Source of the DNA: a virus | Lineage: Duplodnaviria; Caudoviricetes | Strand: one strand, 5' to 3' | Length of the DNA stretch: 64,000 nucleotides | Virus record (IMG/VR): IMGVR_UViG_3300020374_000579 | Location: 3,646 to 67,645 of that record | Part shown: positions 41,294 through 52,420 of the stretch, one piece after another | Position numbering within the stretch: the stretch's first letter is position 1 | Layout of the letters: the number at the start of each line of letters is the position of its first letter | Notes under the pieces: model-generated | The model's database searches: none | Seen by the model: the letters and a program-made list of their open reading frames with translations, nothing else | What the model was told of the DNA's origin: nothing | Made by a program: the position numbers and the translations under genes

Positions 41294-42970
41294 CATAATT
41301 TGTCTACTGCGATTATCATATCCAGGAAGTACTTCCACTTCTTCATCTAATACATTGTCAATACTTAATGCTAAATCAAGGTCATTAGCAAAAGTCTTAA
41401 TATATCTAAAAGACAAGTTTTGTAAATCCTCTAATTCGTCACCATCATAAGGACCAGGTATTCTTTCAAACTGTCCTCTATATGTAATATTAAATTCATG
41501 GCTACCAAAAGATTGATTCCATCCAAATACAGCCATATACTTTGGTACTCTTGCTTGATCCGTATCAGTTACAGAAATTCCAATATTGAATGCTCCAAAT
41601 GTTTGTGCATATCTCATACCAGTTGTTTCATAAGATCCTGTATTATAATACTTAGGATTGTAATATTCTGTTGTAGTGTTTGTTACAGGCTCACCGTTTT
41701 CATCATATGTAATTGTAACAATGTCATTAGAACCACCTGGTGTATATTCAATTGCTTCTTCAAACTCATATCTAAATAAACTTAAAACACCAAAACCAAT
41801 TTCATAACCAATTGCTTCTTCTGGTAATAAGTCTAAATTAGCATCAACATAACTGTCACCATTTAATTCATATAATGTAGGTCTTCTATAACTGTTACCA
41901 ACATTTAAAAAGAATGGTCCACTTTCAAGTCCAAATCTTAATGCATTTTGGTCTTCATTTCCTATTCTAAAACCAAAGTTATATTTCATGGCAAAGTCGG
42001 CATTAATGTTTAAGTAAGCACCATAATTATCTCTATTATGGTCACCACTTGCTGTCATATATTGTTCGTGACTTGCATCAACTCCATAACCAACTTGCAG
42101 TTTATTTGAAAGGTTAGTTTGGTCTCCTATTCTTAAATAGTCTGTGCTACTTTCATTCCAATATGACTCATACTCGCCTGTAAAATATTTTGCTTTATCT
42201 TCTGTTCTACCCAATGTAAAATATTCATTGTTAATTGCAATATTATATTTTTCACCATCTTGTACACAATCATTTGATGAAGCAAAATTTTCATCATAAC
42301 AATTATCATAGTCATACTTGTAATCTGTAAAGTTTGCAGAAATTCTAAAGTCTTGTACGTCAAAATTTAACTTTGCGTTTTTATTAGTGTACAAGTCCTT
42401 TTCTTCATTGTCATTTCTCACACTATCTTGATTTACTTCCATTGCAGTATATTGAAACCAATCGCTTGGTGCAAGACTAACATATTTACTGTTCTGTGAT
42501 CCAGCACTTACAGTAGCATTCTTTTCAATATTGTCTTTAATTAATACTGTACCAGCAATACTACCACTACCATATACAACACTATTAGCACCAGATATAA
42601 CTTTTATTTCTTGTCCTGTTGCTAAGTCTGTTCCAAAATCATACCATGCACTACCAGGAAGGTTTGCAGGAATACCATTTATAAAAACTTTTGTATGCAC
42701 CGTTTGGGCACCTCGTTCATTGTATCCTTGGAAAGCACCTTGACCACCAGCCGTCCATGTGTGGGCAGGTAATAGTACTCTTATTAAGGACATGCCTTTT
42801 AGTGGGTTCGCTTCTACTGTTTTTGATTGTTGTGCCACTACCACAACTTCCTCTATCTCTTCTGCTTTTGCATTAAATGATAGTAACATTATTATCATAA
42901 CTGCAAACACAAAATATAAAGGACTAAAATTGATGTGAAAATTCCAATCCACATTACTTCTTTTCTTCAT
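41270..42970 (-). CDS. TonB-dependent outer-membrane receptor (BtuB-like)
   Basis: Signal peptide ending AKA/EE, TonB-box-like EEVVVVA, plug motif GANSVVYGSGSIAGTVLI, terminal DNVLDE...GYDNRSRQIMLTLQRKW. Confidence 0.9.
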   Translation of the reverse strand: MKKRSNVDWNFHINFSPLYFVFAVMIIMLLSFNAKAEEIEEVVVVAQQSKTVEANPLKGMSLIRVLLPAHTWTAGGQGAFQGYNERGAQTVHTKVFINGIPANLPGSAWYDFGTDLATGQEIKVISGANSVVYGSGSIAGTVLIKDNIEKNATVSAGSQNSKYVSLAPSDWFQYTAMEVNQDSVRNDNEEKDLYTNKNAKLNFDVQDFRISANFTDYKYDYDNCYDENFASSNDCVQDGEKYNIAINNEYFTLGRTEDKAKYFTGEYESYWNESSTDYLRIGDQTNLSNKLQVGYGVDASHEQYMTASGDHNRDNYGAYLNINADFAMKYNFGFRIGNEDQNALRFGLESGPFFLNVGNSYRRPTLYELNGDSYVDANLDLLPEEAIGYEIGFGVLSLFRYEFEEAIEYTPGGSNDIVTITYDENGEPVTNTTTEYYNPKYYNTGSYETTGMRYAQTFGAFNIGISVTDTDQARVPKYMAVFGWNQSFGSHEFNITYRGQFERIPGPYDGDELEDLQNLSFRYIKTFANDLDLALSIDNVLDEEVEVLPGYDNRSRQIMLTLQRKW

Positions 42971-42999
42971 TCTGTCTCCAGGTTATTAGTTGTATATTA

Positions 43000-43027
43000 A
43001 TTATACGTCTAAAACTGGAAAAGTCAA
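43000..43027 (-). promoter_or_regulatory. Sigma70-like early promoter for the TBDR
   Basis: TTGACT-N16-TATAAT. Confidence 0.72.
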
Positions 43028-43045
43028 GTAAAAATTCAACTTATT

Positions 43046-43080
43046 TTAAAAAGGTGACACCCGGAGGAACTCCGGGTGTC
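43046..43080 (-). terminator. Rho-independent terminator
   Basis: Perfect 11-bp stem GACACCCGGAG/CTCCGGGTGTC, then ACCUUUUU on the minus strand. Confidence 0.8.
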
Positions 43081-43081
43081 T

Positions 43082-43133
43082 TGGTGCTCTAGTGGGGGAT
43101 GACTAACGTTGAGCACCAGGGAACCGTTAGCAT
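43082..43133 (-). ncRNA. Candidate structured RNA (H-type pseudoknot) just upstream of the terminator
   Basis: GC-rich island; interleaved stems CTAACG/CGTTAG and TGGTGCTC/GAGCACCA; TAAATAC at 43137-43143 upstream; strand not certain. Confidence 0.55.
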
Positions 43134-43145
43134 AGTGTATTTAAC

Positions 43146-44183
43146 TTATATTGCTCCTGACATACAAGTTGTTTTGGCTAGTTTTTGCCAGTTCTCAGAA
43201 TCCATTTTCTTAAGGTCTGCAATTTTAAGAACCATTCGCAAACTAATCTCTCTGACTATGTCTTGATTCTCAGTCATGAAGTCGATAATCTCCTTATCAC
43301 CTTCTTTTCCGAACTTGTATTCATCAAGCATACCGTCTCTAACAATTTGGTTAATTCTAAGAAACTTATCTCTCTTAGAGTTCATTGTAAGATCCAAGTA
43401 ATGACATCTTGACATAAGTGCCGCCAAGTGGTCCTTAATCTTCTTAGAACGAACGTTTTCAAAATCAACGTTAGTAATAAAGATACAACCACCTTTAAAT
43501 TCAAATCTATCTGGAATACCTTCCCTACGAAGTGCTTGGGACTCTGACTTCCAAGTAATAGTTCTTTTCTTACCTGAATCCAAAGTAGCCTTAAGCATGT
43601 TCAAACATACTTCGTCAAACAACACACTATCACAGTCATCAAATACTAAGATGTTACCTTGTTGTGAGTTATTATAAAGTGTTTGGAAAAGACCAATTGG
43701 TGTAACAGAACCTTTAACAACTTCAGTCCTTGCAGGTTTACCAGCAACTTCCGTAAGCATGTCATAATCTTCTAAAACAGTTTCAACACCAAATGACTTA
43801 CCAACTCCTGGAGGGCCACTTACTATCATACCCCTTACTGTACCTTCTGCTACAGCATGAGTCATTCTGTCCAAAATATCAAAACGTTCACGAATTCGCT
43901 CAATTGCTTGTTCGTCACTTTCCTCATCTTTTGGAGTGTTATCTATTTTAGGTTGTTCTGCATAAACACCTGGAGTAACATACTCCAAATCTTTAGTAGG
44001 ATCTTCTATCAAAACCCTAATACTTGCAAATTTATCACCCATCACTTCAGTACCGTTTACAGTAATGAAGGCACCTTTTTTGCCAACGTTAAGTGGCTTA
44101 AGAATTGGAAATACAGTATCAACGATTTCGTTTTTACGGTAAGTACCAGTCTTAATTTTTACATAATTTAATGCGTTTGTCAT
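43146..44183 (-). CDS. AAA+-type ATPase of unknown function (start revised to 44183)
   Basis: SGPPGVGKS, LVFDDCD; GGGGA SD before the ATG. Confidence 0.85.
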   Translation of the reverse strand: MTNALNYVKIKTGTYRKNEIVDTVFPILKPLNVGKKGAFITVNGTEVMGDKFASIRVLIEDPTKDLEYVTPGVYAEQPKIDNTPKDEESDEQAIERIRERFDILDRMTHAVAEGTVRGMIVSGPPGVGKSFGVETVLEDYDMLTEVAGKPARTEVVKGSVTPIGLFQTLYNNSQQGNILVFDDCDSVLFDEVCLNMLKATLDSGKKRTITWKSESQALRREGIPDRFEFKGGCIFITNVDFENVRSKKIKDHLAALMSRCHYLDLTMNSKRDKFLRINQIVRDGMLDEYKFGKEGDKEIIDFMTENQDIVREISLRMVLKIADLKKMDSENWQKLAKTTCMSGAI

Positions 44184-44242
44184 AATGTCATCCCCGACGT
44201 TTATGTTTATGAGCAAGGACCTTTCCCTAACTCTTATATACT

Positions 44243-44270
44243 ATTATACTTCTTTTTGAGTGTAAGTCAA
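44243..44270 (-). promoter_or_regulatory. Sigma70-like early promoter
   Basis: TTGACT-N16-TATAAT. Confidence 0.75.
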
Positions 44271-44299
44271 CCTTTTTACCACTTTTTTTGGTAAAAAAA

Positions 44300-44839
44300 T
44301 TAGTCTTTTTTGATGTTTAGCATGAATAAACAGGTTTGTAAGCATTTTGCCTGCCATTTGGCATCATCAACAGCACTATGTAATGCTTCTTGGACGCCTT
44401 TTCTAGGGTCTACATCCATTAAACTGAATATAGTCCTGCTATCTCTGATTTGCCAATATGCCCAATTTGTGTGGGTGTTTAGCATTTTATATAGATTCTC
44501 AATAATGACCATATCAAATTGTGGGCCTTGACACCATATTTGGTCACAGCCTACAAGCCATTTATTAAGTGATTTTGTAAATTCATTCAGTTTAATTCTA
44601 CCTTCTTCTGAAAAGGCTATATCCTGAATATCTTGTGGTTGTTTTGCCCACCATTCAACTGTGTTTTCATCTATATCTCTAGATAAAGCAGTTTGCTCGT
44701 CAACGTCTAATTTAAAGTCTAAGAATGAATGTGGTTCTTCATTTGTGTAAGGATTGAACTTTACACCACCCACACTTAATACTACTGCTTCTGGCGTTGT
44801 AGCCAAAGTCTCAATATCAATCATTGCATGGGTGGTCAT
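44300..44839 (-). CDS. 3'-5' exonuclease, DEDD family (T4 DexA-like)
   Basis: MIDIETL, QGPQFD, WQIRDSRT, HSAVDDAKWQ. Confidence 0.88.
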   Translation of the reverse strand: MTTHAMIDIETLATTPEAVVLSVGGVKFNPYTNEEPHSFLDFKLDVDEQTALSRDIDENTVEWWAKQPQDIQDIAFSEEGRIKLNEFTKSLNKWLVGCDQIWCQGPQFDMVIIENLYKMLNTHTNWAYWQIRDSRTIFSLMDVDPRKGVQEALHSAVDDAKWQAKCLQTCLFMLNIKKD

Positions 44840-44848
44840 AAGTATTCC

Positions 44849-45016
44849 TTAATTAGTGTGTTCTAAGCCGAACATTTGGTTAAAAACTTTTAGACCTTCT
44901 TCTCTGGTATAAACAGTTTCATTCCAATCTGTGCGTTCCCTACAATTCATATCGTACCAAACAGCAAAATTTTCATCAAATGTCATGCTTTCGTCGTATT
45001 TAAAATTAGGTTCCAT
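44849..45016 (-). CDS. 55-aa acidic ORF missing from the supplied track
   Basis: AAGGAG SD; MEPNFKYDESMTFDENFAVWYD...; own promoter. Confidence 0.75.
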   Translation of the reverse strand: MEPNFKYDESMTFDENFAVWYDMNCRERTDWNETVYTREEGLKVFNQMFGLEHTN

Positions 45017-52392: not shown

Positions 52393-52420
52393 AACAGTAT
52401 TTATCGAGTATTAAAGGTTA

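Follow-up and report, generated by a model that had tools for sequence, protein, structure and literature searches.

The ATPase gene and its untranslated regions

The 64-kb stretch of DNA analysed here, which we call the window, is a piece of the 67.6-kb IMG/VR viral contig IMGVR_UViG_3300020374_000579 (estimated completeness ~19%). One of its genes, on the minus strand like all the long open reading frames (ORFs) of the window, encodes an AAA+ ATPase. We describe here a structured element in the 3' untranslated region (UTR) of this gene, which contains a C-rich loop complementary to the same gene's Shine-Dalgarno (SD) region. The main parts of the transcription unit are the following:

44243-44270, minus strand: predicted early promoter for the ATPase gene, of the sigma70 type (TTGACT, 16 nt, TATAAT), with 11 of 12 consensus matches
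44187-44198, minus strand: target GUCGGGGAUGAC, the SD region, with the core GGGGAUGAC at 44195-44187
43146-44183, minus strand: gene for the 345-aa AAA+ ATPase (phrog_1250), which shows homology to T4-type nrdC.10-like proteins
43092-43103, minus strand: anti-SD/anti-start loop GUCAUCCCCCAC, with the core GUCAUCCCC at 43103-43095
43048-43080, minus strand: intrinsic terminator, with an 11-bp stem (43080-43056, 8 G-C pairs), a loop of 3 and a U-run at 43052-43048

The AUG of the ATPase gene lies at 44183-44181 and its stop codon at 43148-43146. Transcription is predicted to start near 44236, which would give a leader of ~52 nt, and the 3' UTR of ~100 nt is closed by the predicted terminator. 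The latter consists of a G+C-rich hairpin and a U-run on the transcribed strand, as expected of a Rho-independent terminator, and shows two compensatory pairs in relatives. The sigma70-type promoter is also conserved in relatives. As judged by these consensus predictions, promoter and terminator bracket both pairing motifs, an arrangement that is kept in relatives, and the best explanation is that the ATPase gene forms a self-contained early monocistronic unit made of promoter, leader, ORF, 3' UTR and terminator. Similarity searches with the ATPase gave weak P-loop similarity to clamp-loader subunits, and phrog_1250 is annotated as 'function unknown'.

The UvsX-like recombinase of the window shares 60-68% identity with homologues in 350-490 kb jumbo phages (Sinorhizobium phage Phosso, Atu_ph07, Xanthomonas XbC2, Pectobacterium CBB, GAP32 and Vibrio 2.275.O), and contigs related to the window reach up to 340 kb. 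Therefore, the DNA comes from an uncultured marine giant phage.

Complementarity of the 3' UTR to the start region

The loop sequence GUCAUCCCC (43103-43095) is exactly complementary (9/9) to GGGGAUGAC (44195-44187), which ends 3 nt upstream of the AUG. When the comparison was extended to the whole loop GUCAUCCCCCAC and the leader segment GUCGGGGAUGAC, 11 of 12 positions were found to pair. The 9-mer occurs exactly twice in the window, once on each strand, for an expected number of 0.10, and two or more copies were found in 0 of 100 shuffles. The predicted net pairing energy, from which the costs of opening the local structures were subtracted, ranged from -9 to -16 kcal/mol among the loci described below other than those of the start-codon (L024-type) lineage, and was about -11 kcal/mol for the window.

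Like the 3' UTR motif, the SD is displayed in a hairpin loop. The leader contains two predicted hairpins:

44181-44205, minus strand: start-region hairpin, with the lower stem CAUAA/UUAUG (including the start codon), the upper stem GUCG/UGAC and the apical loop GGGA; minimum-energy fold
44211-44233, minus strand: 5'-terminal leader hairpin, which holds the UGCUC discussed below; minimum-energy fold

In the window's clade the SD lies at the tip of the folded start-region hairpin, the two sides of which change together in relatives (CAUAA/UUAUG versus AUGU/ACAU in locus L031, as judged by eye). In the more distant clade, the SD forms part of an 8-nt loop, UGUGGGAG, on a short stem whose two innermost pairs are kept in 46/46 and 42/46 unique sequences, with four pair types each. 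The covariation score of this stem amounted to 0.475 versus at most 0.18 for slid controls. Because both partners are in hairpin loops, the contact would be made from loop to loop in the hairpin-type lineages, the window's clade included.

The earlier note on this DNA, made from the sequence alone, had pointed to a second short match, between UGCUC in the leader (44215-44211) and GAGCA in the element. This match is present in the window but absent from most relatives. The 5'-terminal hairpin that holds UGCUC shows covarying stems in relatives (TTAGGGAA/TTCCTTAA, TTAGTAAG/CTTACTAA and TTAAGAAG/CTTTTTAA) and a conserved AAGGG loop (by eye, leaders L002-L032), and it may be a 5' stabiliser or a further site of interaction. 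Another candidate interaction, of leader GUUAG/GGGAA with CUAAC/UUCCC of the element, was ruled out by topology, the helices being in parallel order, and by its lack of conservation.

Co-variation of the two motifs in relatives

Relatives were collected with four scans of viral contigs, in which the ATPase and three of its relatives were used as queries and which returned ~230 stretches. We used the loci that hold both the leader and the 3' UTR, which encode 120 distinct ATPase proteins with 63-99% identity to that of the window. A scan for the longest match over whole loci was uninformative because the terminator arms confound it.

The complementarity between the loop and the ribosome-binding site, whose lack of conservation in homologous loci had been named by the earlier note as evidence against its proposal, was kept at every locus, in three sequence states. 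The start region (-30 to +6) of every unique leader/UTR pair was perfectly complementary to the 3' UTR over 6-12 nt and, in all cases examined, the complementary bases included those of the SD or start codon in the leader and those of the C-rich motif in the tail. A 3' UTR motif complementary to the gene's own SD or start codon was thus found in the window and in all relatives.

The first state, with 82 proteins, combines a leader of the type UGUGGGAG, (U)GUGGGAG(G), with a tail of the type CUCCCACA, (C)CUCCCAC(A). The second, found in 36 proteins that make up the window's clade (window included), associates GGGGAUGAC-type leaders with the tail UUAGUCAUCCCC. In the third, represented by 2 proteins, the leader is CUGUAGGAG (GUAGGAG) and the tail CUCCUACAG (CUCCUAC). 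No mixed-state locus was observed among the 120 distinct ATPases. Compared with the first state, the third has an A in place of a G in the SD and, in the tail, a U in place of the partner C, which amounts to a compensatory replacement of a G-C by an A-U pair inside the helix; a flanking pair also switches between G-C and A-U. In an anchored tabulation, helix positions 1-7 were Watson-Crick pairs in all unique pairs except two, which had a C-C mismatch at position 1.

Wobble-compatible variants were also found, such as GGAUGGC with GUCAUCC (L051) and CUCCCACGG with CCUGUGGGAG (L166). Within the window's clade, the leader GGGGAUGACUAA forms 12 bp with the tail, AAAGGGGAC forms 8 bp and GGAUGAC 7 bp, while GGAUGGC pairs through a G-U wobble. 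In the case of GGGAGUAAAGAUGACU, a leader with a diverged SD, the tail pairs with the start codon instead (GAUGACU:AGUCAUC, plus GGG:CCC). The occurrence of three states, the absence of mixed loci and the G-C to A-U double substitution within the helix indicate that the pairing is under selection.

C-rich sequence will to some degree complement any SD and, for a start region of 30 nt and a UTR of 60 nt, we estimate the probability of a single fortuitous 7-nt match at ~9%, so that the SD, being G-rich, might have matched an unrelated structural loop that happens to be rich in C. However, only 0.10 occurrences of the 9-mer are expected per window, the motifs are almost absent elsewhere, and chance is excluded by the fact that the match is kept at every locus through three sequence states, so that we regard the probability of such a coincidence as negligible.

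Concerted change of the two motifs, which form an inverted repeat in the DNA, would also be expected if they were paired protein sites flanking the gene, such as an operator pair or a recombination site for a DNA-binding protein, with no pairing of RNA. Yet both motifs lie within the transcribed unit and one of them is the SD itself. Moreover, they are found in the loops of hairpins with covarying stems, as expected for RNA, and variants compatible with G-U pairing are tolerated. Since the register of pairing differs among lineages, being centred on the SD in some and on the start codon in others, base pairing rather than a DNA site is indicated, and we consider the latter highly improbable.

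The tail motif lies 25-60 nt past the stop codon in the window and in all hairpin-type lineages. Two layouts were found among the distant relatives. In one, the motif is in an S2-like hairpin (S2 being a stem of the window's element, described below), with a separate hairpin before it; in the other, which we call stop-proximal, the motif CUCCCAC is only 2-8 nt past the stop codon and there is little local structure. In stop-proximal loci L057-L061, L064, L070-72 and others, the SD and ATG of the next gene directly follow the terminator, with no promoter. Because of this, the next gene may rely on read-through in these lineages, and the anti-SD motif would then be intercistronic.

The 3' elements of L003/L006 and of L034/L035 differ at a single base, while their leaders and N-termini differ (GGGGAUGAC versus AAAGGGGAC). 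Such near-identical 3' elements with different leaders point to recombination within the ATPase gene. The leaders of both groups pair with the tail, in different registers.

The arrangement was not found in the cultured homologues, namely Pseudomonas phage PA5oct (50% identity) and Vibrio phage BX-1, Vibrio phage 2.275.O, Cronobacter phage GAP32 and Agrobacterium phage Atu_ph07 (~33-34% identity).

Specificity of the motif pair for the ATPase gene

In the 151 kb formed by 24 distant loci, GTGGGAG was present on the sense strand 24 times in the ATPase leader and once elsewhere, and CTCCCAC was present 24 times in the ATPase 3' UTR and once elsewhere. A 250-kb relative with the other state had three GTGGGAGG sites, two of which were the leader/tail pair. 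In a 340-kb, 91%-complete relative, the exact 9-mer occurred once, and both one-mismatch and start-site-like matches were at the level of a reversed-pattern control. Start-site-like patterns were at control level in the window's clade, and TGGGAG-type matches were enriched in distant relatives only to the extent expected for an SD-like word. In the window itself, a search for further targets of the 9-mer with at most one mismatch gave 8 matches (4.5 expected), none of them at a start site. A regulon of other targets was ruled out, as no start-site matches above control were found in the window or in the 250-340 kb relatives. The motif tag is private to the ATPase gene.

No comparable G/C-rich match between 5' and 3' regions was found in a crude scan of the 26 window genes that have a downstream intergenic region of at least 40 nt, a scan in which terminator arms confound the duplex energies. 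The next-best cognate duplexes were those of genes 23424-23092 and 24144-23539 (both on the minus strand), with -19.2 kcal/mol (first of 64 leaders) and an 8-nt match, TAAAAAGG; these may be terminator artefacts.

Fold of the 3' UTR element

The earlier note had described the region as an H-type pseudoknot followed by a terminator. In addition to the loop and the terminator listed above, its parts are:

43125-43130, minus strand: 5' arm of stem S1, CUAACG, pairing with CGUUAG at 43108-43103
43119-43124, minus strand: L1, GUUCCC, a conserved C-rich single strand, found as UUCCCCC in many distant relatives
43111-43118, minus strand: 5' arm of stem S2, UGGUGCUC, pairing with GAGCACCA at 43089-43082
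43103-43108, minus strand: 3' arm of S1, CGUUAG, the final G of which doubles as the first base of the anti-start loop
43082-43089, minus strand: 3' arm of S2, GAGCACCA, with compensatory changes in relatives

S1, S2, the terminator, the loop and the leader complement were all found on the minus strand at the positions that had been reported. The element had been placed in the 3' end of the ATPase gene; being located beyond the stop codon, it is in the 3' UTR, outside the coding sequence. The 111-nt RNA of the element had a folding z of -5.2.

The S2 hairpin is well supported by co-variation. Seven of its pairs are conserved in the window's clade, while 15 of 32 sequences do not form the outer U-A pair, and compensatory variants comprise GGUGCUC/GAGCACC, GGUGUCC/GGACACC, GUGUUCGAU/AUCGAACAC and others. 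Across relatives, S2 stems measure 8-11 bp and show many compensatory variants. For S1, 98% of the cells were paired and one compensatory G-C to A-U pair was found (8 sequences), together with two changes to G-U and a disruptive one, which leaves a mismatch in three sequences. This stem is confined to the window's clade. Thus, the S2 half of the predicted pseudoknot is strongly covarying, but the support for S1 is modest and S1 is absent outside the clade. The loop lengths of the pseudoknot (6, 2 and 13 nt) are sterically compatible with such a fold. The earlier note had also left some doubt about which strand folds, and this could be settled in favour of the minus (sense) strand, because single changes keep G-U pairs on this strand and would be A-C mismatches on the opposite one.

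A search of Rfam with positions 42000-45000 (E up to 10) gave just sub-threshold matches to the terminator hairpin (E 0.37-7) and none on S1 or S2. We also considered a tRNA or tRNA-like origin, which was rejected since no tRNA or tmRNA was found in the window. The element has no second copy in the window, as indicated by searches with a 28-nt pattern (up to 3 mismatches) and with a covariance model from relatives, each of which detected 1 copy.

The single strand UUCCC(CC) before S2 was conserved in all 32 unique members of the window's clade, and in 19 of these 32 the terminator hairpin bears a second loop rich in C (AUCCCCU, ACCCCCU or the like). Such C-rich terminator loops were seen in relatives L011-L020, L026-27, L031 and L040-52; the terminator loop of the window, AGUUCCU, is devoid of a C-run. 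If one counts the C-run of the terminator loop, the UUCCC(CC) strand and the anti-SD loop, a single element can carry up to three anti-SD-like motifs. In one relative (L019:4039-4160), an additional small hairpin (GGUCUAC-UUG-UAGACC), made by a 22-nt insertion, stands between S2 and the terminator.

Downstream of the terminator, a second full sigma70 promoter (43027-43000) serves the next gene (42970-41270, minus strand), which encodes a 566-residue protein with a TonB-dependent-receptor plug domain (Pfam PF07715, E 5.8e-8). A role of the element as a riboswitch or attenuator for this gene was ruled out by the presence of this promoter between terminator and gene, and by the absence of a match to an aptamer family.

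A late-promoter-like motif and a possible small RNA

Between the stop codon and S1 lies a further motif:

43137-43145, minus strand: spacer motif GTTAAATAC; its TTAAATA, located 7 nt upstream of S1, differs at one position from ATAAATA, the candidate core of a late promoter

In the window, ATAAATA was found 25 times on the coding strand and 3 times on the other strand, mostly 4-35 nt upstream of gene starts, and often as (G/T)ATAAATAC. Minus-strand examples are at 52404, 50778, 32001, 24156, 23018, 11187, 9464, 6624, 54061, 13376, 12078 and 3444. This makes ATAAATA a strong candidate for the late-promoter core of the phage. In at least 6 cases just 4-6 nt lie between it and the ATG (e.g. ATAAATAC-TGTT-ATG), so that the late mRNAs would have no leader or hardly any. 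The T4-type late promoter TATAAATA was not enriched in the window (5 found versus 10.6 expected) and was discarded as a candidate.

The spacer motif had been read as a late promoter of the element. It is present, but it is a one-mismatch variant that shows no strand bias in the window (TTAAATA, 9:16 for coding versus other strand), and the exact heptamer is found in just some relatives. If it were active, a late promoter after the ATPase stop codon would drive the synthesis of an ~85-nt RNA, running from S1 to the terminator, that would silence leftover ATPase mRNA in trans; this could also operate together with a mechanism in cis. Consistent with such a small RNA (sRNA) are the strand bias of ATAAATA and its position upstream of starts, as well as the constant spacing at which 13 of 57 unique hairpin-type elements carry the exact motif, most of the others having a one-mismatch version there. 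This spacing is 8-9 nt before GUUCCC in distant relatives, and 13 nt before it, or 6-7 nt before S1, in the window's clade. The extra C-rich motifs of many relatives (AUCCCCU in the terminator loop, 19/32; UUCCCCC in L1) also fit, as trans-acting sRNAs of the RsaE or CcsR type are described as carrying several C-rich loops on one RNA.

On the other hand, the window has the unbiased TTAAATA rather than the exact motif, and several lineages (L012, L015, L031, L102, L115, L116 and L125) miss the motif altogether. Stop-proximal lineages leave no space for a promoter yet keep the complementarity, no sigma70-type promoter was predicted at the element, and with a single target found there is no need for a diffusible regulator. 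We consider a late sRNA an unlikely explanation of the conserved complementarity. Since both the stop-proximal and the motif-less lineages keep the complementarity, action in cis would be what all lineages have in common; some lineages may make a late transcript in addition, for which the window is a weak candidate.

Proposed mechanism

The earlier note had offered, as alternatives, a late sRNA and a 5'-3' circularisation element that shuts off translation of the ATPase, and the conserved and co-varying complementarity of loop and ribosome-binding site supports this proposal. The ATPase 3' UTR probably pairs with its own ribosome-binding region and masks the start site. According to this model, the 3' UTR would present its C-rich anti-SD/anti-start sequence in the loop of the S2 hairpin, possibly locked as an H-type pseudoknot by S1, and the tail, once made, would base-pair with the region where ribosomes bind, on its own mRNA or on sister copies. 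The resulting duplex, of 9-12 bp in the window's clade and 7-9 bp in the other lineages, would occlude the SD and, in some lineages, the AUG. Since ~1.1 kb has to be transcribed between the SD and the tail, the nascent transcript is accessible to ribosomes; translation would then take place mainly before the tail exists, and the finished message would close. In addition, or instead, the duplex might mark the mRNA for double-strand-specific decay. The outcome would in either case be a tight, low and early-only synthesis of the ATPase.

Several observations weigh against self-masking of this kind. The tail UUAGUCAUCCCC is invariant in 32 of 32 unique clade members while the leaders match it to a varying extent, which suggests that the loop is subject to an extra constraint (S1, the start codon or another partner), and masking offers no explanation for the conservation of UUCCC in L1. 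On the ATPase tree, the members of the window's clade form a monophyletic group, and so do those of the third state, which indicates that the two large switches of state were single events and that the independent events are few; each large switch, for its part, needed several concerted changes on both sides. In the L024-type lineage, where the start codon is the partner, the continuous duplex is only 7 bp long, with a net energy of about -4 kcal/mol. Finally, nested folding programs are unable to represent the pairing of a hairpin loop with a site 1.1 kb off, and action in cis and in trans cannot be distinguished in silico.

The same pairing could also have the opposite effect, if it held the SD beside the stop codon, so that terminating ribosomes would melt the duplex and re-initiate on the same mRNA. 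Translation would then continue only on messages that had a co-transcriptional pioneer round. In many distant lineages CUCCCAC is indeed only 2-8 nt past the stop codon, which is within reach of a terminating ribosome, as known from ribosome footprints. However, the 25-60 nt found in the window and in all hairpin-type lineages place the motif beyond the terminating ribosome, and masking of the SD is repressive in every characterised case. We therefore regard an activating loop as very unlikely, and we infer that the pairing is repressive.

A mixed scheme, which we think quite unlikely, would restrict the start of translation to ribosomes loaded co-transcriptionally, ahead of the synthesis of the tail, after which terminating ribosomes would melt the stop-proximal duplex and pass the SD to a recycled subunit. 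The hairpin and pseudoknot forms would in that case be derived, adding a late silencer in trans, possibly with a late promoter. If this were true, the phage mRNA would be translated as a functional circle that locks shut when the flow of ribosomes stops.

Comparison with known systems

The best parallel to 3' UTR masking of the ATPase start site is the icaR mRNA of Staphylococcus aureus, in which UCCCCUG in the 3' UTR pairs with the mRNA's own SD, blocks the initiation complex and creates a substrate for RNase III (Ruiz de los Mozos et al. 2013, PMC3868564). In both cases, a C-rich 3' UTR motif (UCCCCUG in icaR, UCAUCCCC or CUCCCAC in the phage) complements the SD of its own monocistronic mRNA. 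There is no sequence homology between the two, and one gene is bacterial whereas the other belongs to a phage. Furthermore, the phage element has a ~100-nt 3' UTR, with the motif in the loop of a conserved hairpin or pseudoknot and the SD in a hairpin loop as well (loop-loop). The evidence also differs in kind, since it comes from experiments for icaR and from co-variation across ~120 sequences for the phage element.

In Bacillus subtilis, pyrimidine-rich anti-SD-like 8-mers placed hundreds of nucleotides downstream were shown to pair with the ribosome-binding site in vivo, to promote decay and to inhibit initiation (Gill et al. 2025 preprint, PMC12697547). Action over such distances makes a contact over ~1.1 kb feasible. 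Natural B. subtilis genes were reported to be depleted of anti-SD-like sequences, the tested ones being synthetic substitutions (PMC12697547), whereas those of the phage are natural and positively conserved. The hbs mRNA of B. subtilis forms a 14-bp long-range pairing between its 5' and 3' UTRs; this pairing overlaps a leader site for RNase Y, the cleavage of which it modulates (Braun et al. 2017, PMC5737220). It resembles the phage mRNA in its long-range 5'-3' UTR pairing within one molecule but differs in that the SD is left unmasked.

Pairing of distant segments also closes ribosome-binding sites in the RNA phage MS2, both in the coat-replicase 'Min Jou' interaction and through kinetic folding at the maturation gene. 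The likeness lies in the closing of the ribosome-binding site by distant pairing and in the dependence of translation on timing or ribosome traffic. In contrast to the present case, MS2 has an RNA genome, its partners are in coding or 5' regions rather than in a 3' UTR, and there is no homology. The C-rich hairpin loops of RsaE/RoxS (Firmicutes) and CcsR/'cuckoo' (Alphaproteobacteria) pair with G-rich SD regions, and many relatives of the phage element similarly carry two or three C-rich motifs. These RNAs are, however, stand-alone sRNAs that act in trans on many targets, while one target, the host gene of the element, was found here.

Significance

Natural bacterial mRNAs known to regulate themselves by end-to-end pairing are very few, with only three reports cited by Gill et al. 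(PMC12697547), and full-text literature searches aimed at phage cases yielded no phage example of 5'-3' UTR self-pairing. As judged from the sequences compared here, the element is probably a new, phage-borne and structurally distinct variant of this rare mechanism of SD masking through 5'-3' UTR pairing. The comparative evidence is unusually strong in this case: the ~120 sequence variants, distributed over three states that all keep the pairing, represent a natural set of compensatory mutants with which long-range masking of the SD can be probed. The element also suggests a way for a giant phage to meter an early protein without a protein repressor.

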